NCBI GenBank assembly: GCA_051362555.1
Contig: CM120640.1
Coordinates: forward strand, 3,782,001 to 3,846,000
DNA from: Lingula anatina
Lineage: Eukaryota; Animalia; Brachiopoda
Length of the DNA: 64,000 nucleotides
Reading direction: 5' to 3'
Position numbers and translations under genes: made by a program. The notes below the pieces were generated by a model. It worked only from the letters and a program-made list of their open reading frames with translations, searched no databases and was not told the DNA's origin. Below are positions 1,519 to 56,147 of this stretch, piece after piece (positions within the stretch are counted from its first letter, which is position 1; every line of letters begins with the position of its first letter).

Positions 1519-4407
1519 GTAAGTGCTCTTTATTCACAGTTTAATATGTCTCACAAAATTCTGTCATGAAACCCAGGATGCTAAAATAACACCATTAATT
1601 GGAACAGGGAACCATCCCTTATTATACGTCACAGATTAAAATTCCTGGCAAATCAATTTGGTCATCTTTTAACTAGTTTTGAACCTGCAGTGTCTAATAC
1701 GTACTGCATCCTTAGCAAGGAATGAAACAACTGAATGAATCTTTTTTCAATTTGATTAATCTACATAATTTTTTTTTCAGGGGCAAGGTTGGCTTTGAAA
1801 GCGGACTGCAATCCAGGCGTCGACAGATGCGCTGACTACTTCGCTCTCTGTGATGCGCAAACACGATCATGCCAATGTGAGGAGGCATACTATGATAAAG
1901 GTGGCGCTTGTGGTAGGTTGACTGATAGTAAGGCGTGAAAGATGGAATGTTAAAATTGATCTAAACTTCATAATTATAAGTAAATATATTTATAGATGTT
2001 TAATGAGTTGGATCAGGTGAAATTTTATATTCCCATAATTTCTTAAGATTTATGCAAACTTTTGTTGATAAAATGAATGCTAATACATTTCAAGTTAGGT
2101 TGCTAATATAAACAAAATGCTTTTTCTAAAAACTAATTCATTTAGTTTGAATAATTCAGTGAATAACTGCAGTATTTTTAGTGCACTGCCTAATTATCTG
2201 AAGTTCTTTTGTGTCAGTTCCTAAAATCCTGTTAAACAAACCTTGTCAACCAGAGGAGGCATGTCTGGATCCCAATGCTTCTTGTCTCAGTGGCTTGTGC
2301 GTCTGCAATGAAGACAACTTTTATGACAAAAATGAGACCTGTGGTATGTTGGTTTGATTTGAGGAACTGTGATGAAATTTCTCAAGTGAATTTGAATTAA
2401 TAGTTATTCTGGGAAAGAAAAATTTCAAGTTATTTTAATGTTAAATATAAAAATATGGATAAATTAACCTACTAGTATACTACTTTCATACCTGGAATTG
2501 AACCTGAAGCTTATTTCTAAGAGGTGCAATCTTAAAATAGCAGTTTAGGAATTTTACATTTTTATCTTGGTAGAATAAATTTTTACAGAACAGATTTATA
2601 TTTTCATGGCAGTGCCAAAGCTGCCAGTAGGTGGAGCCTGTGTGGCTGGCACAGATATCTGCTTGGATTCTAATGCAGCATGTGGTCTCTCAAACATGTG
2701 TGAGTGCAAGAAGGAGTTCTATGTGAAAAATGGAGAATGTGGTGAGTACACCAACCGTAAATCACTTGTTATTTGCACAGTTATTATTTGATTTGCATTA
2801 GTCAACATGAATAATGATAACTACTGATTCATCTTTACAATGTGAACACCCAATGTAAGTATTTTCTAGTATTGCTAACTATAGTTCATGAACATGCACA
2901 CTTACAGTTCTGCTTGAAATTGGTCATACTGTTAGTCATACCAAGACTAATTTTGGTACTCCATGAATTTTGCTTGGTTTCTGCTCAGATGTTTTACTTT
3001 TATATTCATCAAGGCATGTGATAGATTCATATGTTACTATGTTTATGCGGAGGCAGCAGTATATCAATACATATTAATGCATCAAACTCTACATGCAGTA
3101 TTCCGTGTTGTATTTCAGTACCCTTGCTCGGTTTGGGCAGTTCTTGTGTCCAGGGAGCTGACCAGTGTGAAGATCATAATGCCAAGTGTGTGTCAGGCAC
3201 ATGTCAGTGTGTGGGGGCATACTATAATAAAGACAGTGCATGTGGTAAGTGGTTGAGGGGCACATGTCAGTGTGTGGGGGCATACTATAATAAGGACAGC
3301 TCATGTGGTAAGTGGTTGAGGGGCACATGTCAGTGTGTGGGGGCATACTATAATAAGGACAGCTCATGTGGTAAGTGGTTGAGGGGCACATGTCAGTGTG
3401 GGGGAGCATACTATAATAAAGACAGCTCATGTGGTAAGTGGTTGAGGGGCACATGTCAGTGTGTGGGGGCATACTGTAATAAAGACAGCTCATGTGGTAA
3501 GTGGTTGAGGGGCACATGTCAGTGTGTGGGGGCATACTATAATAAAGACAGCTCATGTGGTAAGTGGTTGAGGGGCACATGTCAGTGTGTGGGGGCATAC
3601 TATAATAAAGACAGCTCATGTGGTAAGTGGTTGAGGGGCACATGTCAGTGTGTGGGGGCATACTATAATAAAGACAGTTCATGTGGTAAGCGGTTGAGGG
3701 GCATGTTTCTGTATGTGAGTCCTTTTATCAAAAGGACTGTGCTCTACTTACTTTGCTTTGATTTCAGAATGCACTTGCTCATACAGGCCATGCATGATGA
3801 TTTTTTCTATATCTGCAGAATTCCTAAAGACATGTTTTCATGCCCCTTTCTTAAAATATACAGAAAGTAAACAACAGTTATTTGATAATATGATATTATT
3901 TTTATGATTTCTTTATATTTCTTGCCAGTCCTCAAGCTTGAGCTGAAGTCTAAGTGTGACCTGAGGGTTGATGAGTGCAGTGATGAAAACTCAGCATGTG
4001 TTCAGGGCACCTGCTCCTGTAACCCAGACTATTTTGAGAAGGAGAATAAATGTGGTAAATTGGGCACACCGTCTTTACTCTTTCTCTTTAGATTGTTTAA
4101 ATAAGCACATGAAAGGGATTTTATGATTCCACATATTTCAGGATATACTGTTTCTGCATTTATCTTAAAACTGAAAAATCACTTATGATATTTATTAATT
4201 GAGAATTTATGGATTATTTATTTCATATTCAATCAGAGTCTAAAGTACTGATAGATGAAAGCTGTACAAGAAGAGAAGAGTGCCTTGACCCAGTAGCACT
4301 GTGTGAGAATGGGAAGTGTAGCTGTAGAGCCACACATTACAAAAACAGGGACAGTACTTGTGGTAAGGCAATATGAAGATTTTTACCATATAATATATTT
4401 ATATTAA

Positions 4408-4460
<53 letters not shown>

Positions 4461-7400
4461 CTTGTGCACGCATTCTAACCGAGGACACACACCCGCCCGA
4501 AACCCACTAACCGAGGACACACCTCCAACCGAGGACGTCCTCGGTTGACATAAGCAGTGGAATGCATAAAGGGGCCCATTTCAAGTTAGGTGGTGAAATT
4601 TGACGCTATTCTGAGCCAGTCCTCGGTTATGCTGTATAGCGCGGGCCAAATTCCCGCCATGAGTGTATCAGAAATACTGTCCAACTTTTTGTCTGAAATC
4701 GGGCTATACACACGCGTCCTCGGTTGTGCTGTAAAGGGCGGACCAAATTCCGCGTCCTCGGTTGTGCTGTAAAGGGCAGACTAAACTGAAACTAATGTTA
4801 TATCTCAGATGTCTATATATTCAGTAAGTTCATATTTTTAAACTAAAGGTCTTTTTTATCAAATTAAGCTCTCCTAGGCCGTTACGTAACTACATAACTA
4901 TCATCGCACTGTACATATTACGGCACGCTTCTTTATTAGTACAACTGACTTGGAGTGGTTTAAATAAAGAAGAACTGTCTGAATTTGTGGCTCACTCGGT
5001 AGATCTTAGGACCGACAATCTTTTGAGGGTGCAAGAATTAAATGAAAAGGGTAAATGGATCGTCCGTAAACCCCCTTTACACTGGGGCGGCGTCCTTTGT
5101 GCGACCAAGAAACTGGCATCACTGTGGTCGTAGAAAGGAGGTACAAGCATTGCTTTGGTTGAAAAAAATGAATATTTGGTGATTGGCCAGTTGTCAGAAA
5201 GTTAAGTATTATAATTTTGTACTCTCAAATGGATCCGTACTACAGGACGCAGAAAGGCCTCACAGCAAATTAAGTATAGGCCTAACGACAGTGTTATACA
5301 AACGCAAAAAAGGTGATAGCAGAGTTGCATTTCAGTTCTTGCCCGTTCTCAAATTTACGTTTTGAATATTTTTCATGTAGATTGTTCAAGTAAAACATCG
5401 ACTTTTGTTTTTTAAATATAGAAAAGGTAATCAGTAGTCTATAGCACACAAGCAAAATTTATTTTTGAGCAAAATTGTTTCAATAACAGATCTTCGTGTA
5501 GCCCCTCCTGCCGAGCTGTGGTTTCAGATTTTTCTCAATTTTACTTGGTCGATCTTATAGATTTTTCTAAATATTCTTGGGGGAGCCCCCCCCCCCCCAA
5601 TCCCCCACCACTGTGCCACCCCTCCTCCCATAAAGAATGCATACAAATCATTTTACCATAGCCACGCCCTTCAGGGTCACCTCTTTTTATAGCGCCGGCT
5701 TGTGAGGCGATCGGCGATCATCGGCGATTATCGACTGACTTCGCTACGCTCCCTAGTGCACGAGACATCGACATACATGTAGTTCCCGAGTGGATTGTGA
5801 TGTCCTTTAAAAAAAGAAAACTAAAGGCCATTTAATAAAGGAAAACCACCACCGATATAAAGGCTTTATAGAGTATAGTTTTCATTTTTAACCAGGAAGC
5901 GAATGACGAAATATTAGTCTCGTTTTCGGTCTCATACCCTTATGGAATGAAGCCACGCGCGGCGGAAATTAACGGGGCCGTAGCGATAGTCCGAAGGTTC
6001 AATGGTCCGAATGTTCACTATAGAACCTTCGGACCAATGAACCCTTGATTAAAAAATCGATAAAAATGTTACCACTTTTCGGACCATTGAACCTTCGGAC
6101 CAATGAACCTTCGGACTATCGAGACGCCCCCAAATTAACGAAGTGAAACAACGAAAAAAAAAACGACTGTACGTTTCTCCTACGACGGCATGGTTCCATG
6201 TGGTTGCACAGTGTTTGCTCTGATTTTCTTTTATTAAGAACAGGAATGGCACTTTCAAGAGGGAAACAGTTGGTGAGTTTATTATTAAGTTTTTAAAGAA
6301 TCTTTTAATTATAAAATCGAGTGTGTAAGTTGGTTTTTCTGTTACTTTAGCTCTTATGTTATCATGAACCGATCTGGATAGATATGAAACATGACTCATG
6401 GTTGCCCCGCTCTGGGACAAGTCTTCAAAAAACTTATTTTTGTTCAGTGAAATTTTCTGCTATATCAGAATAAATTTGTTACTTGATTAATTATATTTGA
6501 TTAATTACCAGTAAGGTTTAATGAAAGCAATTATGCTGATTAGTTGACTTTTTAAAAAGCAACCCATTTATATTCCATTCTAGCTGAGACTATCCATGAA
6601 GAGGAAAAGGGTAAGCAATTACTCTGTTCAATACTTTCAATAAATAAGATGTGTTACTTATTGATCGAACTTACCTCACACAAGCATGTTATTAATCAAA
6701 CCTACTTAAGAGTAGAATGTGTGGCAATAGTACAATTCACAGATTTTATTTTTTGTCAAATTTCTTTGAGACTTTTGTAATTGTATTTGGAGAGCAATTA
6801 CCCTTTGGAATATACTGCTAAAACAGAAAATACCTAGCTATACTTTGCGTAGCCAGCTTGCTGAGCAAAACTTTGCACCTCCATAACCTGGCATTGTACT
6901 GCAACACAGCAGATAATGTGGTATACAATGAGATTAACTACTTCTAACCCCACGCCCCCCCCCCTTTTTTCATTTCAAAACAATTTGCTTGCTTAATTCC
7001 ATATTTCACTAGAATATATGATGTATATATAGCTTTGTAAATTAAGTCCCTACTATTGTCACACATCATAAATATTAAGTTTTGTCTTGAATGAAAAAGA
7101 ATACCTTCAATATTATTGTCTTGTCCTTCAAACCTTTCATAACCTGAACCAAGATTTTAAGTACATTGTACTGTGGTTACTATGACATTCTTCACGTTTG
7201 GTCTGCTGGGAGAGAGAGTACATTTAGGGATTTAAATAACAACTGGGGAAATCTATCTGCAAAAGCAGCAGCAGAAACTTAAATGATCGCTTTATATCTC
7301 AGTTCCTTCCTCATTGACAGCAACATATAGTTTTTAGGGAGAATGTGACACAAAGACCCAATGTTGTTTTTTCTTCGGCATTTCCTCCTCATTGTTTACT

Positions 7401-10400
7401 GCAATTATTATCATCAGTTAATGAAACTGAGAAAGTAATTAAGTGACAGCACATTGTTTATAATGAATGAAGTCATCAGGTGCATGTTACTGAGCGTTTA
7501 AAAGGTCTAGCGACACATTTTATCGCCAAGTGTTCTAGCAAAAAGAGAGAGAATAAGTCTGATAAATCAGGGGATTTTTAGTCTGAATTGGGGGGGGGGG
7601 GGGGGGGGATTGGGAGATATGTCCCCAAATGGGGAGATTCTCAAGGGCACCAGCAGTGTTGACAGATCTGAAATTTTTTTTCGTGAAATGAGTCTGCTAT
7701 GTAAAATTATCATACAATAGATGGTATCATACGTGCCTTAGATCTTCAGTGTGTGCAACAACAGGTGATGCTAAAAAATGTAACAAAAATGTGTGTGTTT
7801 ATGAGGGGACAGTTAGTGGTAGGCCTATTTCTATCGGTAGTTGAATAAAAATAGTCTAGTCTAGAATAATGTATGTGTGCATCTGAGATGTTGAACATGC
7901 AAAAAGTTTTTAAATTATAATAAATAAACACCAGAAATAGGAACATTTTTTAACCCTATAGAGACCGTTACCGCACCGGTGCGGTAAATTCTCCATATAC
8001 CCCAAAGGCCCAATACCGCACCGGTGCATATCTTGGAAAGATCGTCTTGTATACTCTTTTGTATCAGGAGTCACGAAATAACATACAGTTTAACATCCAG
8101 GTATGTTCCTTGTCTCTCATCCTAGCCATTTTTAAAGAACGTGAGAAATAAATTTGAGGTAGAAAACGGCAATTTTCTAGACTTAGTTGCAGTAAGTGAG
8201 ATCAAGATGGCGGCGTCTCGCCACAGTAAGGCTCATGTATACCTGATAGCAAAACGAGCATAACTTGGAAACTAATGAGAGTAACTCTCTCAAATTTTCT
8301 GTATTGAAAGCGAAGATAGTTGGTATCATCCCTGTGAATTTTCAGGCAAATGTGTGGAGAAATGAAAAAAAAAATATGCATAAGATAAATAAACTTTGTT
8401 TATTATCGCCGATTACCAAATAAGAAAGTTGTTTTTAACCGTTTTTAACTGTTGATGCTGCTTGTTAATTTCAAATGTAATTCAATTTTCATTTAGCTTA
8501 AAGTCTTGGCTTTTTATAAATGTATACTTTGTATGGGTAATAATGGCACACAAATAAATAATGGCCAATTTACTGCAGTGACCCCGCTTTTCAAGATTAG
8601 CCCACAGAATTAATTGGGCCCAGCAGAGGTTTATGGGTCAGCATTAACAGGTCTCTTAGGAGTTAAATGGCTTTGCGCCATGGCCGTGAACAGCACACAT
8701 AATGTAATATAATCTATGTTCATCAGAAAAAAAAATATTCGAAAAAAGGTTATCCTTGTCCAAGCACTTGTTGCAATATGTAGTTTTTTTTCTGCAGTTT
8801 GTTGGCTGAAACGGGTAGTGTTTTCATGTGCACGTAGATATTTCTGACATAATCTTTGCACCACAAATGGTCCTAGAATCCCCACCAGAGTTTTTCGTAC
8901 TCAGTAGTATGCCTAACTTTGTTATTTGAAAGGAGCCTAGGGGTCTGTTACTCCCCTATCAAGCATGATTATCAGTGTTAAATTTGTAAATTTGTACATA
9001 ATAGCACAATCTTTTCTTGATGTACTTGGGGTTGGCAAAGTTTTATATTTCTTAGATCATTTAACAATTACCAATCATTCTATTATAATCATTCCAGGAT
9101 GACACCACCCTAACTCCAATTCATGATGCAGAAAGGTGGATAAAAGCATGTCAAGACAAAGATGGATTTGAAGTTCGTTTTGTAAATAAAGAAAAAGGTA
9201 TTTACTTTTAGGCTATTTTCTCTCTTTTATTTTGTTAATTTTTTTGACCATTTATTTCTAGAAAGATGTAGTGATAAGTGATCAATTAAGTAAATTTGGA
9301 ACAGAAATTCTTATTTTAAAAAAATCTCTTCATGATTCACTGTGTGATAATACTTTTGTAAGGAGGAAATGCCAATTTCAGGTTCTGGAGTGTTTTCTAC
9401 AAAGACTTTTTCAAAAGGAGAGTTTATTGCGGATTATCCAGGGGAACTCATTTCGCAGAAGGATGCGAAAAAAAGGGAGAAATTAAAAGGATATACAAGG
9501 AGTCGGCATTGCTACATGTATTTTTTCAAACATGATGGAAAATTGCTGTGGTAAGACAAAACCAACATGATTTATATTGTAAGGGATATAGTTTACGCCT
9601 ATCGCATGGCACTGAGGGAAATAGCACTATTCTATTTCCCAGAGACCAGATTTCACGAGGCTTCAATAGGTCTGTTCAAGGGGAAATAGAATCGTGCTAT
9701 ATCCAAAAAAGCCATACAATAGGCCTTTTATCACACCAAAACAAACGCTAAGTTGACTTTTTAGCAATCTCCATAAATCAACATTGTTATTTCCTTCAAT
9801 CAGATATAGGCCACCCCCACTGAACATGGTAACATCACAATGCAAACCACTCATGTAGGCGTAAATTACCCCATTAGCCTTAAAAAAAAACCTGTGATTT
9901 TTATTGTCACTGCTCACAAATTTGTGCAAATTACATAGGTTGCATAACGCCTCATTGTCTTTCTGATGCTCAACCACGTTTGATTGTTTGCATGCCATGG
10001 AAGGGAAAAAAGTATTTTTTCGGAATCTGATTGGTTGTTCAGAGGGACAATAGTACTGCATCCAGTTAAATAGTACTACTTCACTCCAGCCGGGGACAAA
10101 CAAATTTTATACCAACAACAATGAAGATGTAGCCTTAAGGTGTGATAATGAAAGCTATATGTTTTAACAGAGATTGGGACACATTTGAAATATTAGGGAT
10201 AAATTTTGTAGGATTAATTGTCTGTTCTTGGGCAAAGAATATTGATATTTATGTCTTAAGTATTCCATTTCATATTTTAGAGTAAGCAACTTAGTATATA
10301 AGGTTAATATATTGTAAGGAGTTTTAAAAATATCGACTTAACAATTGGTTATAGTAAGCCCAAGGTAGTGTTTTGTGGTTACTATATTTACAGCAATAAA

Positions 10401-10675
10401 ATTTGAGGAAATGCTTTTTTTCAGTCTGGATGCAACTAAAAGCTACGAAAGGATTGGCAGGATGATAAATGACAGTCCAGAGCCAAATGCTGTAACAAAA
10501 AAGATGGTGATATCATCCACACCACACTTGGTACTGTTTGCTGCAAGAGATCTGGCTGTAGGTGAAGAAATCACATTTGATTATGGTGATGAACAAAACT
10601 TATACTGGAGAAGAAAAAAGGTATTTTTTTCTCAAAAGGACATGTTATTTAAATGCTGCAATTTCATTTTGCATG

Positions 10676-10726
<51 letters not shown>

Positions 10727-11175
10727 GGTTAGAAAATTAAAATTATTTCAAATAAGTTATCATTTATTATGCATTTTCACATGCAAAATATTTCATCAAA
10801 GTTTTAGTCAAATACATATATTAGGTAACTGTTTGTCAAAGATAAATACATAGCATGAACAACAATTTCAGGTTGCAGAAGATGCAAGTATGGAATTTGA
10901 GGCTGGTAAGTTGATTTTTTGTATTTTGTCATACAGCAGTTTTTTTATATTTGGTTATAGATATTTATGAACCTTTCTGTTTAAGTAATAAGATATCATT
11001 TGATCTTGAAGAGACCATACTTAATAATTATATCACTTTCTCATGTTAGATTCAGATTATGACCCGTTCCTGTTTGATTCAGACAATGAACTCAACATGA
11101 AAAAATATAAGGTAACTTTTTAAATTAATGTAGGATAAACATATTAAATGACAAATAGCAATTTAAAGTAAATGA

Positions 11176-11225
<50 letters not shown>

Positions 11226-14200
11226 CATATGTTACCATACTTTACCATAACATACCAATTACTAATAAGTTGTGTTGCAAAACATTCAAACAATGCTATT
11301 CATATCCTGCAGTTCTGTTTTCACCCTAACATTTACATTTACAGGTTCCTCTGTAAAGAAATAAAAGCTGACAAACGGCAAAAATAGCACAAATATACAG
11401 TCCATGTTTTTCTATTATAAAATTCATTATTCTCTGCATGATGTATTTACCACAGATACTTGTATCCGTAATTTTCATATTTCAGAAAACTGAAGAACAC
11501 TTCGAGCCCGAGATTGTTGAAAACAGTTACAGTGAGTATTAATTAATTAAGTTGTTTGTTGAAAAGTACACATTTGCATTTTTTAATAAGACATTTTACA
11601 TTTATTTATGTGATTTTGATAACTATAGGCCACCAGTGGGATATTGGGGCATAGAGTGCATTTGGCAATTGCACCCAAATTCGTGATCAGACTTAAAGAG
11701 TCTAGCAAAAGTTAAGTTTGTATTTCCGAAGCAGAGACTCTGGTACAAGATGCTTTTAGTTAGACAAAATTCAGAAGCTAGTAATTATCTCAATGAGGGT
11801 ATAAAGGTTGATTGCAATCAATGACAAATATTTAAGCTAAATTTAGGTAATTAAGACATACTCGACTATTTTTATATACAGTTTTATTGAATTTTTTTTT
11901 CACACAGGATTTTCAGTAGCTTATATATCCCATGGAACTAAATCACTTGTTAGTTTTTCAATGTCCATGTAATTTGTGGTACATAATGTAACAGTACATG
12001 AAAATTGGCCAAAGCACTCTTTGGTGCACTTTTTTCTGCCATGTTTGAATATTTGTCAGCTTTGCAGGTTTGTTTCCTGTATGGTGTCTGTCTATTTGTC
12101 AGCTGTCTAGTTTCATTACTGGTTGCTCAGTAGGCTGTTTATTGCAGGGTGTCATTTTTCCCTTTTCTCTTTTTTAAGTTTATATACCTTTGTGATTTCT
12201 CCATTTTAGGTGATGAGAGTAGCTTAATTACTCTACAAAATCCATCCTTTGAAAGGTTTATCACGTATGTATTTATGACTTCTAAAATGGCAGAGATACA
12301 TACATCCATGTATAACATTGAAACAGTTTGTTGCTAAGTCTGTTGTTAAATAATGATAAAATATTTCTTATTTTTCTTTGTATTATAGCATAGTCGTCAT
12401 GATTGGAATAATATTTCTTATTTTTATTTTTATTATTGAATAGTCATGATTAAAATTTGTTCATCTTGTTTTGAATACTTCTGAATTTATGACTTATCTG
12501 TTACTATTTGATATTCCAGAGACTCTAAGAATAACGTTGAATCCACAGAAAAGAACAGCAAAATTATTGCTAGTGAATTTGAATGTGAAACAGACGGTAA
12601 GTAAAATGGTCAGTGATGATAGTTTATGTATCCAAACCTACCAAAGTCTGATTTTGTTTGCATGCAAAACTTCCAAACTGCCAAATCCAGTTTACCCTGA
12701 TCCTAATAAATTGCTCACTAAAGAAGACTCATAAAATTATTTTAGGCTTTTAATGTGAAATATGGAATTGATACAGTAGCTTTCTTTTTACGTACAGACA
12801 CAAATGAGTCTGTACATATAGCTGTCACCTGCGTCTGTCGTGGCCGCCGCAGCCGTGCGCTCTCAGCGTAAACACGATAAGTTGAAAACCATTTAACATT
12901 TTGGCTTTATATTTACAGAGTTGATGAATATTAATATTACGCAGGTAAAAAAAATCAGCATGATTGGACTATTTTTTAAAAGTAAGACTTTTTTTTGCAT
13001 TTTCCGCACATATGCCACACCTTAAACACATTTCAAGAAGAACTGATAAGCCTATTGTCTTGAAACTCACAGGAGTGATCAGTCTTACTGAAATACAGAT
13101 CAAGTTTGAAAATAAGCTTGATTGGCTCCGTTTTGAGGGCCTTTATTTGTATATATGTGCTTTTTCCTCAAATTCAATTCTTAGGCATGTTAACAGTCGT
13201 TATTGAACTAATGAGATACATGAAAGTGTTTGACTGATATATTCTGCATCTTTACAATATTGTTAGTTGAGTATATAGAATTGATGGTAAACCTGTTATC
13301 ATGCATTGTGTAATATAAAGGGTAAAAAATAAAAATTAACTCATATTATTGCAGTCTGTCAGATTCAATCATTCACTATGTTCAGAATGGAGGAAATTGG
13401 ACATTTATAACTGTTCGTTTGACATTTTTCCCATCTCAACAATTTTCTCAGTGGATCACATAAAAATGGCAGTAAACTGTTTATTTAGTTTTATGTCTAA
13501 AAAGTGTCAAAATAGCAATAAACCCATTTCAGTACAGTGATCTCTTGTTTACATTTTGGCATTTTCAAGGTGTGAGTTTGAAGTTCCATTGGCCTGAAGA
13601 CCTATGATAGTCACATTTTCTCAATATCCATGATACTAATATTTTATTATCAAAAATTGATGGTGTTTATGCTGTTAAGCATTATGTAATATTGCATCAA
13701 AATTTGAAGAAGACCCTATTTTTTGCACTGTTTCATGATGACCATTTAGGGAAAACCATGACCATGTCACTTACTGTTAACAAAATTACAGGAAAGAAAC
13801 ATGGGACTGAAATACAGCTTCAGTTGCCAATGCAATCTGTTTGTTTTTCAGGCAGTTATACAGTTTTTTGTAAAAATTAAATTTTTCAAATATTGGCACT
13901 ATCAAGGTGTGACTTTGAAGTTCCATGGGCTTGAGGGTCTATGCTAGTCACATTTTCTGACTATCAATGATACATATATTGTATTATTAAAAATTGATGG
14001 TTATGATGCTGTTAAGCATTATGAAATATTGCATCAAAATTGAAGAAAATCCTATTTTGGTGCACTGCGGCCATGATGCCCATTTAAGTAAAACCATGTC
14101 ACTTACTGTTATCAAACTTAAAAAAAGAAACACAGGACTAAAATGTTACTTATTATTATTTTTAACTTACAAGAAAGATTTTTAGGATTGGCATGCAGCT

Positions 14201-17200
14201 CAAATTAGAAAGCCAGCTCGATTGGGTTTTCATTTATTATTGAATTTATGCAATTTTGTGTGAAATTTTCATTTTTCTCATTCTGGCATTTTCAAAGTGT
14301 TAACTTGAACTCTCATGGGCCTGCAGGCTTATGCTTGTTACTCATTTTACTCACATCGGTATTACCTGTTGAGCATAATTAAAATTTGATGCTGAATTTG
14401 CAGTTAAGCATAATATACTTTTGCATCAGAATTGACAGTAGCCTATTTTGTGCATTGTTATTTTCAGATTTTTTGCAGCATTTTTGTCTGCTTGCTTCCT
14501 GTACATTTGACAGCTTTGCTGCCTTGTTTCCAGAAAAGGTCTACCGTGGAAATTTTTTTTTTATAACTTCGCAAAGTGTTTATGGTAAAAGATCAACCTT
14601 CATTGCCCTCTTTAAAATTTCTGGCTACTGACTTCTTACTGGGCCGACCGTCATCCCACAGATAGCACCATCCAGTTTATGAATATACAATTTACAAAGT
14701 GGTGTACATATAATGATTGAAAGCTGGATAAATGGTTAGAGTACGTCATCTATTTATCCAGCCTTTATATTTCAACCATGGAGAATTTAAAATTGTATAG
14801 AGGCATGCATAAAATAAAGCCACCCACTTGATGTTGATGAAGTGAAACCCTGAGGGTAACTGACGGAATCCAGTGATAGTAACTGTACTCTGATAACTTC
14901 AGTACCAGTGTGGTGCAGCTTTAAAAATGTTCAAGTTTCGAATGTTTATTTAACATTCTGTTTGCCTCATTTTATAGGAATAATAAATCCATCAAGTGAA
15001 TTGGATGCCATTGAGGATGGGGACAAAGAATACTATCCTAGTGGCAGCACAAGTGAAAGTGAAGCAGATGAAGAAATGCAATGCTCTTTGGATGTTTCCG
15101 TTGAAACCACCCCTACAACTGTATCTGCAACTCTTACTGCCATGTCAGATACATCTGACCCTGAAGAGTCAGCCTGTAAATCCAAAGTCACCATCCAATC
15201 AACCAACAACTCACAGAAACGTAACTGGGATAAGAAGTATTATTGCCTTTTTTGTGACCTGCCTCAATCCAAGCTTCCAAGACATCTTTCCACAATGCAC
15301 CAAGAGGAGCCTCAGGTAATTGACTACCTGATAGAGGAAGATACAAAATTAAAATCCTACAAACTTGCCAAATTAAGGAACCTTGGGAACCACAAACACA
15401 ACTGTGATGTGCTGAGGAATGGAGAAGGTACATTGATTGTCGGTTATAGACCAAATACGGAGGTCTCACCAGATGATTACGGACCCTGTGAGGGATGCTT
15501 TGTATACTTAGTAAGGAGAGACTTGTGGAAACACAAATGCCCTGGAAGAGATGCATCTGCCCCCAAACCAAGGCAAGGAAGACAGGCAATAACCTGCAAA
15601 TTGCTGCTGCCAGCACCCAAAGGGATGAGCTTACCGGTTAATAGATTGCTGCGAAGCATGTTGGATGATGATGTCTCTCGTGCAGTTAGGAATGACTCTC
15701 TAATTGTAGACCTAGCTAATAGAGAATTTCTTCGATTGGGGCATAATAGAGATCAGCACAACTATATTAGGGACACTCTTCGTAGAATGGGACGCCTGCT
15801 GATACAGCTCAGAAGCCAAACAAAGAATAAACATGCTGGACTAGAGAGCTTTATTGATCCCTCAAGCTACCAGGAGGTAACCCAAGCAGCAAAAATAGTC
15901 TCTGGTTTTAACGAAGAAACGCACAAGTACACAACGCCAAGTCTTGCCCTCAAGATTGGACACACAATTAAAAAATGCGCTAAAATCTTAGAAGGTAGAG
16001 CATTGGAGCAAGAAGACAAGGAGATGGAGAAGAAGTCCAAGTCATTCAGGAAGCTCTGTGAAATGAATTGGACAGATGATATTTCGACCCATGCTCTGCG
16101 AACCTTGTACAACTGCAAGAAGAATCAGATCAAAGTTCTGCCAGTGACAGAAGACATCATGCTGCTTTCAAAGTTCTTGAAAAATGAAAGTCAACGCTGC
16201 ATAGACGAAGTGGAGAAGAGCATGGATTGCAACACATGGAACAGATTGAACAAAGTAGTCCTAGCTAGAATCATTCTATTCAATCGCCGCCGGCAAGGAG
16301 AGGCCTCCAGAATAACATTAGATGATTACCAGAATAGGCCAGCACCTAATGGGGAGAAGGTAGTTTTAGATAGTCTTACTACTGTAGAGCAGGAGTTGTG
16401 TCGAACCCTACACAGAATGGAGATCACAGGGAAAAGGGGAAGAACAGTCCCTGTTCTTCTCCCATCAGATGTGCAACAGGCGATAAATTTGCTCATTGAA
16501 ACAAGATCAAAATTTGGAGTGAGCAAAGATAACAAGTATCTCTTCCCCAGGCCCAACTATGGCAGTGAGGGTCACATCCGGGGGTCGGACTGCCTTAGAG
16601 AACTAGCACAAGAGAGTGGAGCAAAGCAGCCAGAGCTGATCAATTCCACCACCCTGAGAAAGCAGATTGCCACCATATCCCAGGTGGTAGATCTGAGAGA
16701 GAATGAGCTGGATATCTTGGCTAAGTTTTTAGGCCATGATATTCGTATACATCGGGAATATTATAGACTGCCAGAAGCAACAGTTCAGGTGGCCAAAGTG
16801 TCCAAGCTTTTGCTTGCCTCAGAGCAAGGACTGCAAATTGGAGGCAAGACTCTCGATGACATAAATGTCACCACTGAAGATGGTATGTAATAGATCCTTC
16901 TCTAGAAATCATTGTGAAACACTTCCATCCATCTCCCTGAAAACATTTCTAAATGTTAAGATGTTGTGTACCTGAGAGATATTACCAAAAATCTGTTATC
17001 ATTAAAATTTATTCAAAGTATGTAAGAGAATACACACTGAATTCTCATTTCACTAGTTGTTTTATCAATCAAACATTATACGATTTCAAATTTTAGTATT
17101 TGAAGAGGAATTGTTGGAGGACGCAGCAAATGAAGACTCTGCTCAAGGTATAGTAAAATTTGATCAAATGCTGAGTTGCACAAGTGATGTTTTTCGTAGT

Positions 17201-20200
17201 ATAGGAACATGCAGTGAGTGCACTTCTATGTGTAAACGTACAATAAAAACTGTCAGAATTATCTAGATTTACATGCTACATTTAAAGTGATAACTGTTAG
17301 TATGAAATCCTTATTTGACAATGAATACAAATGCTATTTTACCACCAAAGTGGCATTTTTTTTTTTTTTTTTTTTTTTTTTGCTAAAATGGTCATTTATT
17401 ATCCCTTTAGTATATTTACCTTTAATTTTGCTTTTTCAGATATTGTTGGTCAATTGATTCCAAGGGTCCCTTTAGATAATGGTGGAGAAGTTAATGCATT
17501 AGTGGAAAAACCAGGTAAAAAGAATTGCAAGAAATTACATACAGTAAATGTTTATCAAAATATTTGAATTATATAATGAACTCTCAAATTTCTATATTGG
17601 TATTCTAACATATTTTTTTATGGATATTACTTGTTACATGATCTAATAACATATCAGGTGAAAATATGCTATACACTAATTTTGCTGTCAAAATGCTTAG
17701 ATCCATATTCTATGGGGAAACTAAGAGGCCTTTCACAACAACTGGGCCAGGGTTTGACTCATCATGTGACATTTTGAAAGAATAACACCTAATTCTTTAA
17801 TGGAATGTCTTCAGGCAACTTTGCTGTTTTAATAGCTCTCCCCCCCCTGCAGGGAAGGCGGGTCGATTGTTAAAGGATAAAATTTTACTTTTTTAACATG
17901 TGTGATGATTTAGGCTTCAGCTCAGTTAAGCTGCAGCTCATTTGTTATGATTAGTCTCTACAGCATTAAGTCTGAATAGTTCCATACTTTTTTTATTTGT
18001 AGTCCCAAAAAAGAAGGCAAAAGGCAAAAGGCCTTGGACAAAAGAAGAAGTGTCAGCTGTATTGAAGCATTTAGGAAGTTTCCTGGTTCAAGGAAAACTG
18101 CCTGGAAAAGAAGCAATCATGGAATGTGTGGAACAAGAATCTGCTTTGGATAGCAGGAGCTGGAAAAACATTAAAGACTTTTGTAGAAACAGAATGCAAA
18201 CAAAGGATCCACTAAAACTAACTTATGCAAATTAAGCAAGTTAATTTCGAAAATCAGCATGGGGGGGGGGGGGGGTTCAAGCTGTGCTTTTTTCACCTTT
18301 TCCAGCATATTTCCAACACTGTTAACATATTTCCGATAGGCGTATTGTCATGAAACTCACAGAACTGTTGAATATTTATAAAACGCAGTTCGAAAATCAG
18401 TGTGATCTGGCCATTTTTACAAAGTTGCTGTTTTTCCTTTTTCTCAGCATAATATTATATGCGATGCAACATTTTAAAGAGAACCGATAGGTCTATTTTC
18501 ATGAAACTCACAGAACTGATGAATATTAGTTAAACGCAGGTCAAGTTTGAAAATCTTCATAATGGGCTGCTTTTTTTTTTTTCAGAAAATTTGCTGTTGT
18601 TTTTGCTTTTTTCAGCATACATGCAACACTGTAAACACAGTTCAAGGAGAAGCAATAGGTCTATTGTCATGAAACTCACAGAACTGATGATTATTAGTAA
18701 AAGGGTTGTCAAGATCAAAAATCGGCATATCCGGGCCATTTTTTGTCAAAAGTTATGCTGTTTTTTTTTCTGCCATTTTCAGCATATAAGTAACACTGTA
18801 AGCACATTTCAGGGAGAACCGATAGGCCTGTTGTCATTAAACTCACAGGAGTGATCAATGTTACCAATATACAAATCAAGTTTGAAAATAGGATTGATTG
18901 GTTGAGTTTTGTGGAAGTTGTGCCTTGTTTTGATATATATATATATATAAGTGGTTTTCCTCAGATTTGATTGTCAGGCATGTTGACAGTTTCGTTATTG
19001 AACTAACTAGATATGTAAATATGTTAGTGTTTGTCTGAAATTTTCTGCATCTTTACAACATTGCTAGTTGATTATATAAATATGACGGTAAACATGTTAT
19101 CATGTACTGTGTAATACAGTGTCTCAAAATGGAGGAAATGGGGTGATTATTTTCAAAAGTTTTGCATTTTTTTTCTCCTTTTTTCAGTGTACATGCAACA
19201 CTGTAAACACACTTCAAGGAGAACCAATAGGCCTGTTTTCATGAAACTCGGAGAACTGATGATTATTAGTAAATTAAAAAGAATGATCAAGATTGAAAAT
19301 CAGCATGACCAGGCCCTTTTCTTTCAAATGTTATGCTGGGTTTTTTTCAGCATATATGTAACACTTTAAGCATATTTCAAGGAGAACCAATAAGCCTGTT
19401 TTCATGAAACTCACAGAACTGATGATTATTAGTAAAAGAATGGTCAAGATTGAAAATCAGCATGACCAGGCCCTTTTCTTTCAAATGTTATGCTGTTTTT
19501 TTTAAGCATATAAATAACACTGTAAGCACATTTCAGGAAGAAGCAATAAATTAAAGCCTGTTTTCATGAAACTCACAGAACTGATTATTATGAGTAAAAG
19601 AATGGTCAAGATTGAAAATCAGCATGACCAGGCCCTTTTCTTTCAAATTTTATGCTGTTTTCTTTTTTTTTCAGCATATAAGTAACACTGTAAGCACATT
19701 TCAGGGAGAACCGATAGGCCTGTTGTCATTAAACTCACAAGAGTGATCAATGTTATCTATATACAAATCAAATTTAAAAATAAGATAGATTGGTTGAGTT
19801 CTGAGGGACTTCAGCTTTTATTTGTATATAAGTGGTTTTCCTCAGATTTGATTGTCAGGCATGTTGACAGTTTCGTTATTGAATTAACTACATATGTAAA
19901 TATGTTAGTGTTTCTCTGAAATTGTCTGCATCTTTACAACATTGCTAGTTGATTATATAAATATGACGGTAAACATGTTATCATGTACTATGTAATACAG
20001 TGTCTCAAAATGGAGGAAATGGGGTGATTATTTTCAAAAGTTTTGCATTTTTTTCTCCTTTTTTCAGTGTACATGCAACACTGTTAACATATTTCAAGGA
20101 GAACCAATAAGCCTGTTTTCATGAAACTCACAGAACTGATGATTATTAGTAAAAGAATGGTCAAGATTGAAAATCAGCAAGACCAGGCCCTTTTCTTTCA

Positions 20201-20211
20201 AATGTTATGCT

Positions 20212-20259
<48 letters not shown>

Positions 20260-23200
20260 CCAGCATATATGTAACACTGTAAGCACATTTCAGGGAGAAC
20301 CAATAACTTAAAGCCTGTTTTCATGAAACTCACAGAACTGATGATTATTAGTAAAAGCATATTAGTAACACTGTAAGCATATTTCAGGGAGAACCGATAG
20401 GCCTGTTGTCATTAAACTCACAAGAGTGATCAATGTTATCTATATACAAATCAAATTTAAAAATAAGATTGATTGGTTGAGTTTTGAGGGACTTCAGCTT
20501 TTATTTGTATATAAGTGGTTTTCCTCAGATTTGATTGTCAGGCATGTAAACAGTCTCATTATTGAATTTACTAGATATGTAAAATGGGTTGTTTGACAAT
20601 TTCTGCGTCTTGACAATATTGCTAGTTGATTATATAAAAATGGTGGTAAACCTGTTATCTTGTATTGTGTAAAAAAAAGTGCCAAAATGGAAATGAACTC
20701 GTATCATTGTAGTTTGTCAGATTCAATCATTCACAATGTTCGGAATGGAGGAAATTGGACATTTAAACTTGTTATATTGATATTTTTGCCATCTCAACAA
20801 TTTTCTTAGTTGATCATGTGAAATGGCAGTAAACTGTATTATTTAATGTAAAAAAGTTAAAAATGGAAAGAAACCCATTTCAGTACAGTGCTCTCTTGTA
20901 TACATTTAGCATTTTCAAAGTATGACTTTGGAGTTCCATGAACCTGAAAACCTTTGCTAGTCACATTTTCTGAATATTCATGATACTAATATTTTATTAT
21001 AAAAAATTGATGATCATTATGCTGTTAAGCATTATATAATATTGCATCAAATTGGAAGAAAGCACAATTTTGGGTGCTGCTGGCATGATGTCCTCAATTG
21101 TAAAATTGTGTACTGTGCAAGTCTGTATCCAATGGACGACACTTTGTGTTATCAAAATATAAAATTCATGATAATAAAAGAGTGCTAAATAGAAAATAAG
21201 CATTATGAAAATAAAATGTTTGAAAACGAATTTCTTTGGTCTTTTATTTTATTTCATCAGTATCCTTTCTTTTCCTAAATTAATTGATGTTTTATCTCAT
21301 AATCTTCAATTCTAAAAAAGTGGCAAAGTCCAGCATTAAATATTGTATAACTGTTCATTTAATCATCACTTCTGGTGTTATTTTGGAATTTACCTTAAAT
21401 ATGAAAGAATTTCATAAAAATGTGAATTGCTGCAAAGTAACGCTACATAAAATTTGCTTTGCATTAAAAGTACAATCATTATTACATGTAGATGCATGCA
21501 TGTCCTCGGTTGTAATGTGTAGTGTCTGTCCGTGTGTGTGTCCGTGTGTGTCCTCGTTTAGAATGTAAAATTCTTGTCAGCAAAAAATTAGTTTTTATAA
21601 AAAATTAATTTATAACATTCATACTCGAATAGATTTTACCCTAAATTGAATGTTTTTATTTTGATTTAACCAAGGAATAAGATGTCCTCGGTTGTATGGT
21701 GTTGTGCTGATGTCCTCGGTTGGTACACATAGACAAGTATGTGTGTGTGTGTGTGTGTGTGCGCGCGCGCGCTCCATTCTCTTTGAATAATCTATTGCCT
21801 TAGTATGAAATATTTTCTTATCACAATGATTGCAGTGTAAGAAGAATTGTCAAATGACACCTGAGTTTTTTTTTTTTTTTTTTTTTTTGCTATATTACCA
21901 CATTTACGTAGTATTGCATATATATTTTTAAACTTACTGTAAAAGTAGCATGTGTTGTGCTGAAGAGATGAGTTTTAAGTAGTTATAATATCTATATAGA
22001 TATAATATCCATATAAAATCCATATTTTATAACAGTTTTAAAGAAGCTTCACGAGGAGTCCTGCAGTTCGGAAGATGAATGTGCAGATGAGAATGCTGTC
22101 TGCAATCAACAGTGTAGGTGCAAAGAAGACTTCCATTTCTTTGAAAACAAGTGTGGTGAGTTTTGAATTATGTTCTTTATATTTGGACACATTTTAAATG
22201 TAAACTTTTGAAAATTGTTATAGAGCATCACAGTAAACATATCAGAATTTTTTTTACAATATTTAGTTATTTCCACTGTAATTATGTTAATCTTTTAAGT
22301 GAAAAATTTCCAATTTATGCAAAAAAATATTTCAGTTCCCCACTTTGGCCTTGGTGCTCCCTGCGTTACCAAGGCCCAGTGTGCAGACCCCAATGCAGCG
22401 TGTGATGATATCTGCCGGTGCCAGGAGGAGTATTTTGAACTTGAGGGAGAGTGTGGTGTGCTATTTAGTTTTTATGAGTTTGTTTAGAACATATGCAAAA
22501 TATTTATAAGAATATATGTGGTACAGTCAACACGACTTTTAGTCCAAATTGATAAAGACTTCAAATTTAAGTTTTAGTTTTATTATTGTAATAGTCAAGA
22601 AGACAAAAGCATTAGATACGTATTGTATCAAAAAAAATCAATTATGAGGGAAAAAGTGCTTGATTTTGTTTCCCAAATAATTTTTCGTTTAAAACAGAAA
22701 AAAAACATACAGATCTGTTATATAATTCTTCTAGAAAAGAAAGTTCCTTTGAATGAGCCATGTCCAGGTCCAACCTACCTGTGCATGGACAGTAGTGCAA
22801 AGTGCCAAGATGGCCGCTGCCTCTGCCTGGATACACACTATGAGAAAAACTCTGCCTGTGGTAAATTTGTATTCACAAGTCATATAATTGTTTATTTGTT
22901 TGAAATGGGTATCGCGGATTACGTTAGAACAAATTGATTTTATGATGTTGATGATATTTCAACAAATTTTTACTTCAGAAGTGGTTTCATGTGTATATGT
23001 AAATATTTATGGCCATTGCTTACTGCCAACAAACTGGGCAGTACAGCAGTGTATATTCATTAAGATATTCCACTTAACAAAATGATGAAAACAAACCATT
23101 TTGACTCTTAAGAATATGCAAAATACTCCCAATTTTTTCAGAATTAAAGCGCTCCCTGGCGGCCACGTGTGACCCTGGACTGGACGTTTGTAAAGATGTT

Positions 23201-38200: not shown

Positions 38201-41092
38201 GTGTTAAATAATTTATAGTCTCTATTACAGTGATGGCTCTCTGTTACATGTGAGATTTAATGTTTATGTCTGTTTTCCTTTAGCTGGGCAACAAGGTCTT
38301 AGAGGATTGTGCAGTTCAAATCAAGGCTGTAGGGTGACTGACTCCATGTGTAATAAACTAGGCGTCTGTCAGTGTAGAGAGGGCTATGCAGAATCTGGAG
38401 AGATTTGTGGTAAGTTACTCTGATGAAAAGTTGTTTTTTATGGTGGCATGATTTAGAAAACACCATCTTCTAATTTTTGGTCTGAATATGGCACCCCCTT
38501 GGGCTGTGGTGCATCTTCAATTTTAATCCTCCTGTTTTCAAATTAGGTTTCATTCTTGACCTCCGTCTGAATTGTAGCACCACACCCTGTTGTGTTTGTC
38601 TTGTAACCCTTTATATTTTATTTGTACCTTCATATAGTCCCCTTGTCTTCCCTTGGTGCTTCCTGTCAAACCAATGCAGAGTGTTCAGAGGCAGGGGGAT
38701 ACTGCAGCAGTGGGACTTGTGTCTGCCTGGCAACAGACTACATCAGCAATGGACTCTGTGGTGAGGAGAAGAAGAAATGTGTTAAAGCCAGTTTTTGAAT
38801 TTTTTGAGATTTTTATTGCAGTATTGCATACTGAAATGTTTTCTTGTCTTTCCTACCTAGAGCCTTATACGTGTTAACATCATACTTATATTCAGATTCT
38901 GCTTTGCACATAAATTATTTAAAAAATTTGATGAACTTTTAGTACCAAAGGCAGGGTTGGGGCAACCATGTGCTGCACCCACAGGCTGCTTGGATGGCAA
39001 GGCTGAATGCAGGGCTGGAATATGTGTGTGTAGACAGGGATACTATGATTCTGATGGCACTCAGTGTGGTAAGTAGACACAGTTCATGTCTAGTTTGGAG
39101 TATGTGTGTGTAGGAATGGATACTATGCTGATGGCACTCAATGTGGTAAGTAGACACAGTTCATGTCTAGTTTGGAGTATGTGTGTGTAGGAATGGATAC
39201 TATGCTGATGGCACTCAGTGTGGTAAGTAGACACAGTTCATGTCTAGTTTGGAGTATGTGTGTGTAGGAATGGATACTATGCTGATGGCACTCAATGTGG
39301 TAAGAAGACACAGTATCCTGAGTTGTTCCATAAATCCAATTAAATCCAAACCTGGTAATCTAAGTTTTGAATGAAATTACCTGGTTGGCCTGGATTCGCC
39401 AAGTCGTAAATTTTTCGTCTCTGGTGTCTTCATTTTGCATGCATCATGATGTGTGTGGTGTGGAAGGATGGAAGGAACATAAAAAATTGTTCTTGGTTGA
39501 AGACAGAAAGACGTTGAATGAGGATATTTTTATCATTTTTGTACTTGAATATGCATCCTCAGTTCCCAAGAAGAGTCTTGGAGATGTCTGTGCCAGGTCA
39601 GAAGAGTGTCAAGGTGACGTCATGACATGCCGTGGGTCCCTGTGTCAGTGTAGAGATGGGTTCTCTCCACAGACTGGAAGATGTGGTGAGTTAAGTCAAA
39701 ACATTTTACAGGTTGATTTTGTGATCAAAGTGTTGTTAACATTGCAGTATATAGGGTTAATTTTGATTTTCTGTAACTTTATATTATATAGAATAAATGT
39801 TGGTTGTCCATTACATGTAAGGATGTACAATATGTACATTTTCTAATTAATTTTAAGAGGATGACAATTTTAACATTTGAATATTTGTCCGGTGAACTTT
39901 TTCATAGAGTTTCAGCCAATTACCTGATGTTGATTTTCCAATTTATATTACTAATATCATATTCAAAATTTGGATAATTGTCAAGTGAATTTGTCTTGTA
40001 ATATCAGCCATTGACCTGATGAATGTTGTTCCCATCCCAGTGCCCGCAGCAGCTGTAGAGTTCCCCTGCAGTGTTGGTGTCCTGTGCAGTGATGTGAACT
40101 CAGAATGTGTACAGGGATCTTGTGTATGTCAGGCTGCTTACCAGACAGTGGAGGACACATGTGGTGGGTATTGTGTGTGTGCGTGTGTGTGTGTGTGTGT
40201 GCGCATGCGTGGGTGCGTGTGTGTGTGCGTGTGTGTGCATGCATGCATGTGAACGCTTGTGTGTGAGGGTGGATGGGCGTGTACGTAGTTTTGTATGTAT
40301 GTAAAGATATGTTAGTTTATATGCATATGGTATGTGCATGCACAGACATGTAAATGAGTGTAAATATGTGTTTGTGTGTCATCTTACCTTCAGTCTTCAC
40401 TTACCTTTACATTTTAAGAAAGAAAATGGTAACAGAAACTTGGTGGCATACACTATATTTCATTCCATTGATAGTAATAATGACTATTGAACGATCCATT
40501 TCCAGAGCCCCTGGGTACTTTGGACAGTGGCTGTCTGTTTGGCTGGGCTTGCAGAGACACCAATGCTGTGTGCAGGAATGACCTCTGCCTCTGCAAAGAT
40601 GGGTACTTCTCTAATAATGGCATTTGTAGTGAGTAACTTTTGTATTAATCTTATATTAGTTGTTTGATGGCATTTGAGAATAGACGATTTCAGATTCATG
40701 CAAAATGTCAATTTGAACTAAGTTTTTGGTAGCAGCCATGACTTATGGTAGAATAATGACACACTAAAGAATTATAAGATGAAAAATAAAAAAGACAAAG
40801 AAACGTTTGGTAAATTTTAAGAAGACTAGTACTGAGATAACAGTGCTTTGTGTATCCCCCTAGGACGTCAGCCAGATGTTGGAGAGCCCTGTAGAACTGG
40901 GGACACCTGTTCTCATGGCCTGGCTGAGTGCAGGAGTGGACAGTGCCAGTGTAGACAAGCTTACTTCAGTATTAACAAGAGCTGTGGTTAGTGAGCATAG
41001 CTAGCTCTCTCTTCTCTCTCTGTCATTCATGTATCCATGCCTCCACACATGTACGTGCATATGCACACACACACACATGCGCACACACACAT

Positions 41093-53431: not shown

Positions 53432-56147
53432 ATGGGATCTAACTTCAAAGATAAAGGGATCCTGTGCCTCCTGGTGATCCTAGGATGTATTCTGGAGATA
53501 TCGCAATCTCAAGAAGGTAAGAAAAACATTGCTGTACGGTGAACTTTAGTCTGTTACAAACAACTATTATTGTCTTTTCAATTTTTGCCCTTGTAAACCA
53601 TTACCAATTTTAAAAGAAGATAAGTAAATTAATATAAAGCGTATTTAAAAGATCAACTTTGGAATCCCTTTGTCAGCTGATGTGATTTTAAGCTTTTGTG
53701 ACTTTTCGGGCATCTTTTTTCTTTTAACATTTAGTGCGCATATAACCAGTTCTTATGTAAACAGTGTATGCCCAATTTAAAGCGCACATTGCCAAAGATA
53801 ATCAATTACTTCAAAATTAATTTTGACAAAAAAAGTTCCCTTCTTTTCGTTTAAATGAATTCAGAAAGCAAACATGTTTGAATCGAGGAACACCATGCAG
53901 AATTGAAGGTAAAATTCTCAAGCTCGCCATGTGACCATTTTTATTTTCTGTTTCTGTTTATATCTATTTATTACCTTATCACACATTCAATAACACAAGA
54001 AAAACAAATAACAGAGGAAAACAAAATTTCTTCTTCCGGATTAAAAACGTTGCCAAGTGCGTTATTCTCAGCTAATTTATGTTAGCAATGATTGCGTCAT
54101 GGCAGGACGCATAGAATATGCATTGACAAACCAAGCAGATTCTGTTTTCAATATCTTTGCGTACCATGGTACTACAATGCCAGCACACTCCTATTAAATA
54201 TATTTTCATTGCCCAAACTTACAACTGCTGCAGGCAATATAGACATATATGTTGTTGCTGAACTGAGAACTAACCTAGGGCTTATTGGGCAAGTGCCTGT
54301 CAGACAGTGAACACCAAAACGTCTGTGTAAAGCATACGGCCAATTCTCTAGTAGACCATGTAAAGAAAAAAATCATAATGACAACGTATGCTGATTAGAG
54401 TAAGGACTTAAAAATTTGAATATTAACCGAACATGATTTGCTTTTTGAAAACCACTCTTTAAACCGTCAAAACAGGTTCTTGCATGTTTTTGATGCCCTC
54501 ATGCCCTTCGATCTACTAGGGAAGCACATGGCAACATATTGATACCTCACCGTACATGTATATCCCTTTTATAATTGTTTTTTATAAATAGATACCCATA
54601 GTATGTAGATTTAATAAACGGTGTGATAACTGTAAGCTACACAATACAGGTATCAAACATGTGCATCTCTACTAGTGCTAGAGATAGTAGGGCTAGATAA
54701 TTTAACAGTACAGTTCATGGCAAAAAAAAAAAAAAAAAAAAAAAACAGGTCGAAGGTCAATTTCAAGGTCATATTAATATTCCGACTATATTATGTGCTA
54801 TTCAAATTCAGTAGTAGTGTATCTCTGCTGCTTTGCAGATACAAGGGCTAAAAAATTTGCAAAATTCAGTTCACGATTGAAAAGTAGGTCAAAGGTCAAA
54901 TTCAAGGTCACTTTAACATTGCCAATATTTGGTTTGCTATGCTAGTTCAATAGTAACTATATGGGCGTATTTATGCTAGTTTGGAGTATTTCCAATTTTA
55001 TTTTGAAAACTTTTAACATTGAGCTTTGCACCTTTGTACTATTTGAAATAGCTTAACAACTAAATCGTGTAAAACCCGTTTAAAATGTCAATTATTTAGT
55101 TAAAAAAGGCCAGATTTATTAGTTTCTGTCACCAGAGATATATGAAAAGAAGAATTCGGGAAAATATCCTTAACTTCATTTTTACTTTTCTGTTTGCCTC
55201 GAAAGTACGGTACCTATATACTGAAAATAATAATTCACAAGTGAATAGAAAAGACTTATATTTAACACTAATCATTTGCGTTTTATGTACAAAATTTGCA
55301 AAAGCAAATAGATATTGTATCATGATAGATATATGACGGTTTATTACAGGATGGCCTCCTGTAGGCCTAACTACAATGGACCGCGACAGTAAAAGTACGT
55401 GTAAGGTGTGAATAATGTACATCTTAGCAAAGTTGCCCGTTTTTTTTTATTGATAATCACATAAATAAAAAAGCAATTTAAAACCCAAAAATAGGCGAAG
55501 AAACTGGCAATATCACTTTAAAAAAATTAATTTGAAGGTAAAGAGCAAGCAACCATTTCATAGTCCCAAGTGAAACGTTAGCTATTTATTTTACTACTGC
55601 GACAAATTTGCTTAATTGGTTGTATATTGTCGATCAAATTTCTTTTGATATTGTACCTAGATAAATTAAATTTACCATGTTTGTTACAAAATAAGAAAAT
55701 TTCTCCATTCTAGCAAGGCACGAATTAATTATTTTTTTCACGATTTACACAAAAACTAAATTTATCAATTTTTGTCACTAGAGATTTAGAAAAAGTAGAA
55801 TTAACGAATATATCTTTAACTTCATTTTTCACTTTTTTTTTCTTCAAATGGACCTATATATTCAGAATGAGTGATAGTTTCAAATAGTATAACTAAGATA
55901 AATATCAAAGCGTGTCGTTTCATATACTAACTTTTACTTCAATTAAAATTACTTGCCGATTTGATTATTCTTTATTATCTAATGTAGTCAATATATTTGA
56001 TCATAGCAAACTGCTTTTACATTTCTTATGAAATGAGGCATTTCTTTTCAAAGCACTGAAAAAAAAACAGCTTATTTTGATTTAAAAAAAAAAAAGATCT
56101 AAATTTTTTTTGTTTTTTTCTCCCCCCTTTTTTGTCTTTTTCTTTTT

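Follow-up and report, generated by a model that had tools for sequence, protein, structure and literature searches.

CryptonV is a lineage of tyrosine recombinase (YR) DNA transposons with microsatellite-specific families, described in one line of PMC8869645 (citing Kapitonov and Jurka 2012, Repbase Reports 12:2034) and listed in Repbase tables. We analyzed a 64-kb stretch of the genome of the brachiopod Lingula anatina (assembly GCA_051362555.1, contig CM120640.1, positions 3,782,001 to 3,846,000 of the forward strand; hereafter the window, whose own numbering is used), in which an intron of a host gene is occupied by a 17,281-bp unit. This unit is probably a full-length, potentially autonomous YR DNA transposon of the CryptonV type, inserted in (TG)n and encoding a predicted SET-recombinase fusion. 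A preliminary description of the locus had read it as mobile, YR-only, microsatellite inserted, and SET fused, and each of these points was supported. Its proposal of an undescribed class of element was not upheld, since CryptonV with microsatellite-specific families has already been described and other DNA transposons are known from the literature to have captured a SET.

Like the unit, CryptonV is an animal YR-encoding DNA transposon that inserts into microsatellites and has no reverse transcriptase (RT), but its accessible descriptions include no SET fusion, no 17-kb size, and no subterminal motif arrays. Insertion in a microsatellite was seen at both ends of this one copy in L. anatina and at the right ends of 4 of 80 related loci, and the host is an animal. 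The unit also has the makeup of a Crypton in the broad sense, that is, a eukaryotic DNA element with a YR and without an RT. CryptonA, -I, -F, and -S elements (Kojima and Jurka 2011, PMC3212892) resemble it in being YR-only, in their many non-autonomous derivatives, and in the circle model; in contrast to the unit, both terminal repeats and a C-terminal domain are absent from animal CryptonA and CryptonI elements. DUF3504 is characteristic of CryptonA and GCR1_C of CryptonF, neither of which fits the unit. CryptonA was rejected because there was no DUF3504 (PF12012) match and the unit has a C-terminal domain and terminal motif arrays, and CryptonF because its C-terminal GCR1_C domain was not matched.

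Starships are likewise large, YR mobilized, and eukaryotic, and were an Atlas feature neighbor at 0.89 (a lead only), but they are fungal and cargo rich, whereas the unit has one gene. They were rejected for want of a DUF3435 match and of cargo genes, and DIRS/Ngaro elements were rejected because the unit has no other frame longer than 149 amino acids (aa) that could encode an unspliced RT/RNase H. Endogenous nimaviruses (PMC10871703) resemble the unit in having a YR with a C2H2 finger and in inserting into simple repeats, but comprise hundreds of kilobases of viral genes. SET capture is known for HarbingerS, MuDR, and proto-Helentron elements of oomycetes (PMC12730594, PMC4067079). These are DNA transposons with a captured SET, like the unit, but use DDE or HUH enzymes, and the proto-Helentron SET is a separate Clr4-like open reading frame, whereas that of the unit is of the KMT5A type and fused to the YR. 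No SET-YR transposon was found in the literature searched, which did not extend to Repbase Reports, Dfam, or the 2020 Kojima review; the fusion may be described there. PMC4157794, PMC13465017, and PMC5718144 gave no result either.

Termini and target microsatellite

The limits of the unit were placed at 4459 and 21739 because its ends are symmetric there; the unit is 2 nucleotides (nt) wider on each side than the location given earlier (4461..21737). As had been claimed, (TG)n flanks it on both sides. On the forward strand, the left half of the target microsatellite is (TG)25 (4409..4458), and the right half (21740..21772) consists of (TG)11 at 21740-21761 followed by CG repeats.

Eleven copies of the 10-bp motif AACCGAGGAC were counted in the window, each of them within 305 nt of one of the two unit ends; the expected count was 0.86, and none of 100 shuffles reached 11. 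The left end (4459..4763; motif scan and a contig from sequencing run X6) begins with the terminal CTCTTGT and has three inward copies (4477, 4509, and 4527) and four reversed copies (4537-4763). The right end (21502..21739; same evidence) has four inward copies and the terminal ACAAGTA. At each end the outermost copy faces inward and lies 18 nt from the TG tract. The termini have CTTGT in common at positions 3-7, and over the outermost 30 nt one end is complementary to the other at 20 positions, with no similarity beyond that. Long terminal inverted repeats (TIRs) were rejected, as the best local alignment of the ends covered only about 68 columns. The matching inverted ends described earlier therefore exist at the level of the 10-bp motif arrays but not as matching 300-bp TIRs, and the ends are putative binding-site arrays of that motif. 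A direct terminal repeat of the Crypton type could be supplied by the TG overlap, and the inverted motif arrays are present as well.

The predicted gene, its recombinase, and its SET domain

A 13-exon gene encoding 1,005 aa was predicted from the DNA on the forward strand (6596..18236), in the order SET, linker, zinc finger (ZnF), YR, and helix-turn-helix (HTH). All its internal junctions are GT-AG and it forms a single open frame; exon 8 has two possible donors, and confidence is lowest for the exon that starts the coding sequence and for six small exons of the linker. Homologues have the same SET-ZnF-YR-HTH order. There is no further stop-to-stop frame longer than 149 aa within the unit, so that no unspliced RT or DDE transposase gene is present, in agreement with the earlier claim that none is visible. 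Cargo genes were rejected on the same ground: the 17-kb size is accounted for by introns and nested repeats, with about 3 kb of coding sequence, about 14 kb of introns, untranslated DNA, and repeats, and about 4.4 kb internally repeated.

Exon 10 (14978..16882, forward strand) encodes two Cys/His clusters followed by the core-binding and catalytic domains of a YR, as judged from a structure model and the alignment of homologues. The model (predicted local distance difference test [pLDDT], 91.8) has the Xer/Cre core-binding and catalytic fold. Its top Foldseek matches were XerH/XerA (E, 1e-4 to 4e-4), the comparison with VIA gave a Z of 14.2 and a root mean square deviation of 4.6 over 299 aligned residues, and structure searches also found resemblance to integron integrase, Cre, and phage integrases. 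Weak PF00589 matches were obtained among homologues in Pfam. The catalytic residues R690, K737, R812, H838, and Y847 (model numbering, assigned by motif) are kept in 115, 114, 114, 116, and 115 of 116 homologues, respectively. The two Cys/His clusters upstream of the YR are conserved and gave no significant zinc finger match in Pfam or PDB. The last exon (18003..18236, forward strand) encodes a conserved HTH-like domain and the stop codon; its model has three helices (pLDDT, 93.9). This domain had no significant match in Pfam, PDB sequences, or Foldseek, the homeodomain and Myb matches being nonsignificant. Of the single SET-ZnF-YR-Myb protein proposed earlier, SET and YR thus stood, while the ZnF is indicated by conserved Cys/His residues only and Myb only as a three-helix HTH, for which the Myb label is no more than a fair lead.

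The SET domain is encoded by exons 2-4 (9098..10620, forward strand; profile and PDB-sequence matches). Both SET exons tested had human KMT5A/SETD8 as their best match (E, 4e-13 and 8e-12; PDB 5TEG, 1ZKK, and others), the families that followed being at 1e-6 or weaker apart from 4LDG. Across the two exons, insert region included, 53 of 108 residues are identical to human SETD8 (49%), which exceeds the identity to 32 other SETs of the family (39% at most). The unit differs from KMT5A/SETD8/PR-Set7 in its fusion to a recombinase and at two sites. RxxNHS reads RMINDS, NHS being replaced by NDS, and a Phe stands in place of Tyr two residues ahead of the last catalytic Tyr, which occurs in this copy and in none of 39 other family SETs. 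We take the latter position to be Tyr334, the product-specificity switch of SETD8. A Phe at the SETD8 switch permits the addition of more than one methyl group (PMC3874154), and Y334F structures are tabulated in PMC3529403.

Whether this domain is an enzyme was weighed separately from the rest of the reading. There is a nearly even chance, falling slightly on the lower side, that the element is as described but its SET is catalytically dead and serves as a nucleosome-binding module only. N-D stands at the NHS position in the unit and in 31 of 35 nonredundant family SETs having letters there, and BRCT, FHA, or Tudor-like domains occur in some relatives, either replacing the SET or accompanying it, though these may be gene-model chimeras. 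Such domains fit a swappable chromatin module. The conflict between SET and YR trees described below points the same way. Against a dead SET, the GxG loop, N110, and the post-SET Trp are kept in family SETs of fish, newt, echinoderms, and oyster, and the active-site tyrosines in all with letters there (Y57 in 32 of 32 and Y148 in 39 of 39), as selection for cofactor binding predicts. Methyltransferase activity of the unit's SET has about even odds. The earlier attribution of a chromatin-modifying domain to the recombinase thus stands as to the fusion of a SET with the YR, while the change in the NHS motif leaves chromatin modification unproven.

A SET was found in 62 of 240 homologues; of the 120 that exceed 970 aa in length, 59 have one. 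Many of the short hits probably represent calls of one exon, in which a missing SET says little. SET and YR distances were correlated (rho, 0.62; 0 of 999 permutations), a statistic that ignores kinship. The SET tree, which has no outgroup (none of 15 KMT5A candidates was significant), conflicts with the YR tree among invertebrates, suggesting that the SET module was exchanged or recaptured among invertebrate family members. Four echinoderm SET-YR proteins (P0123, P0126, P0143, and P0150) keep N-H and group apart in the SET tree; on their sequences, they are the best candidates for an active SET enzyme. Six oyster homologues (P0130, P0206, and P0208; P0174, P0179, and P0180) have a predicted N-terminal BRCT or FHA domain replacing the SET or beside it, which may be a real module or the product of a chimeric gene model. 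Other homologue fusions, with chromo/MPP8, NCK2a, HECT, and GST, resemble gene-model chimeras with hosts.

Copies, relatives, and alternative readings

At least half of the left-junction words were present in 9 of 12 listed sequencing runs, with three studies represented. The read contigs that carry the two unit ends were about 55 times as deep as those of the host flanks: in run X6, each end lay on a single contig, with depths of 5,270 (left) and 5,263 (right) against 91.5 and 97.9 for the host flanks, figures that are contig depths and not copy numbers. The SET-exon contigs of this run had depths of 34-43, and the YR contig had a depth of 107 and 4 differences from the window, the two within the exon being silent. 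In run X9, from another study, the end contigs had depths in the thousands against 60.5 for the host flank, and the YR contig had two amino acid changes. One X9 contig (depth, 466) joins 4879 to 20318, weakly, with a short side of 25 nt. The pattern of depths probably reflects many internally deleted copies, a few YR copies, and one full copy on one haplotype.

An 851-nt contig of X9 (depth, 60.5) tracks the left flank to 4382 and continues with 182 unplaced letters. An empty allele would need 26 plus about 107 nt and a short tract, with which this contig agrees; other polymorphism is possible. X9 had no cover over parts of the SET and zinc finger exons, and X11 covered the host flanks and internal repeats but almost nothing of both ends and the YR; neither was counted as evidence. 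Run X10 contributed two records only.

Relatives of the SET-YR gene are near-identical on separate contigs. Six Alosa proteins on six contigs share 90-99% identity, and further sets were found in zebrafish (three proteins, 95-99%), Vanacampus (three, 99%), and Ostrea (two pairs, 93% and 97%). These dispersed relatives and the high depth of both ends in X6 and X9 support the earlier view of a mobile unit. The family comprises 4,058 clusters at 50% identity (E ≤ 1e-30), and every named homologue is from an animal. The pairing of SET and YR, as read from protein sequences, is widespread in fish and marine invertebrates and usually annotated as an ordinary unknown gene. For a viral origin, 95 pattern matches in viral contigs included none related to the unit's YR, and no viral relative was its leading match in BFVD.

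Among metagenome loci with related genes, three (L027, L080, and L011) have GTA and then TG repeats downstream of the YR, behind motif arrays of their own; L027 has ACAAGTA in common with the unit and L011 has GTCCTC. The right end of L067 lies in (TAG)n behind a GTCGCC array. Of 11 microsatellites of at least 24 nt, 3 had at least 4 motif copies on the inner side (background, 7%), and L011 scored 3. In L080, palindromic arrays of one 10-bp motif flank the YR gene (520-1240 and 7815-8170), and the right array alone abuts TG.

Several points weigh against the CryptonV-type reading. The right-end microsatellite pattern was present in only the 4 of 80 related loci mentioned above (most of which are short), a left end in a microsatellite in none of the 80, and the upstream array of L080 has no adjoining TG tract. 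The likeness to CryptonV is drawn from a published description and not from sequence, and canonical Cryptons are described as without TIRs (PMC3212892). Depth is an indirect measure, as noted, and the X6 left host flank is identical to the window, so that X6 may not be independent of it. The empty allele is suggested by the left side of one X9 contig, and the 13-exon fusion in L. anatina is a prediction from DNA. Thr takes the place of the HxxR His in the unit's YR and in 115 of 116 homologues, and N-D that of the N-H of the SET motif in the unit and in 31 of 35 family members. Insertions nested in the introns mean that the unit's lineage is not brand new.

An unlikely alternative, but one to be reckoned with, is that the element works in the same way and belongs to a separate, unnamed lineage of animal YR transposons. 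DUF3504, DUF3435, and GCR1_C had no match in the unit's protein or in 37 scanned homologues, and the family motifs were absent from the supplements of two YR papers (PMC10871703, three files; PMC13465315, one file). The family is very large and unnamed, and the nearest Atlas clusters are annotated "hypothetical protein." However, animal hosts, YR-only content, and a microsatellite target fit the one-line description of CryptonV (PMC8869645), and a family so abundant in zebrafish and oysters would be unlikely to be missing from Repbase. A cnidarian Myb-type cluster is an Atlas neighbor at 0.91, and CryptonV was named from cnidarians.

It is very improbable that two non-autonomous ends, moved by another transposase such as a DDE enzyme, enclose the SET-YR gene as cargo or as a host gene that is domesticated or immobile. 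In favor of this, some DDE families typically have subterminal motif arrays, 12 introns are predicted in the gene, the region upstream of it is rich in CpG, and the TG tract could conceal a target duplication. Against it, YR genes of other animals are followed downstream by ends of the same anatomy but with other motifs, the YR catalytic residues are conserved, near-identical copies are scattered through fish genomes, and the unit lies in a small intron of an unrelated gene.

Host gene, proposed transposition, and implications

The host gene consists of tandem six-cysteine (EB-module) exons, three of four tested exceeding the Pfam EB cutoff. The unit lies between an EB-module exon (4237..4362; Pfam EB E, 1.9e-6, and exon scan) and the next host exon, a six-cysteine module read by eye (22036..22156), both on the forward strand. 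This intron is about 17.67 kb long, or about 0.39 kb minus the unit, and the median gap among 47 script-detected host exons is 625 nt, in keeping with its earlier description as oversized. Tandem arrays at 3121-3703 (63 bp, 8 copies) and 39016-39314 (77 bp, 3.8 copies) copy the 3' half of a host EB exon, and both include the splice donor, giving several possible donors. The apparent end of the EB gene is a proline-rich tail exon, after which a SUEL-lectin-like exon (Pfam E, 0.0015, below the cutoff) starts a possible second EB-repeat paralogue (49448-50155 and 56844-57293 region). A 145-bp tandem repeat block lies at 61078-62269, with an inverted partial copy 6-7 kb upstream (54740-54960).

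Within the unit, intron 1 holds a nested non-autonomous element (7950..8666; sequence and raised read depth) with TTAA on each side and imperfect inverted ends of about 13 bp. Repeat scan and read depth revealed high-copy repeats in intron 9 (12915..14459), related to a 3' block (18288..21093) in which high-copy repeats of about 160 bp are partly in tandem and partly dispersed. These two regions and 5950-6135 are of very high copy, deep in X11 too, and probably lie nested within the unit as independent satellites or non-autonomous elements.

On the basis of YR biochemistry and of the model proposed for Cryptons (PMC3212892, PMC9977147), we infer a mechanism; site-specific insertion and clean excision of a Crypton have been observed in Chlamydomonas (PMC9977147). 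Bound to the 10-bp motifs near the termini, probably by its Cys/His region or its C-terminal HTH, the protein would synapse the two ends and excise a circle. The circle junction would consist of inverted ACAAG/CTTGT arms around a 6- to 8-bp TG-containing spacer. A second recombination by this enzyme, between the spacer and a TG tract of the host, would give microsatellite insertion without a true target duplication. The recombinase would also move the many internally deleted copies, and motifs and repeats would vary from one subfamily to another. The SET, captured from KMT5A/SETD8, would most likely engage the histone H4 tail, either tethering the recombinase to chromatin or marking it locally.

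The fullest version of this proposal is doubtful. In it, a large and still active animal family of recombinase transposons, wrongly filed among uncharacterized or KMT5A-like host genes, would carry on the recombinase itself a working KMT5A-derived methyltransferase that places the H4K20 mark at the element's own ends or at microsatellite targets and so couples integration to chromatin state. The Tyr-to-Phe change would make this copy a dimethylase, and fusion and function would be undescribed whether or not a repeat library already lists the ends.

In print, CryptonV-type elements are barely more than a name; the copy described here is intact, its ends are defined, and its gene is open. One question that it makes accessible is how one recombinase can direct 17 kb of DNA into a dinucleotide repeat, possibly as a tool for insertion at sites of low risk; another is whether a transposon of animals modifies chromatin by means of an enzyme that it encodes itself. 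Ends present in many copies within TG tracts could interfere with microsatellite markers. Among genes annotated as "SET-domain" or "KMT5A" in fish, echinoderms, and oysters, many are probable transposons, which would inflate SET gene counts.

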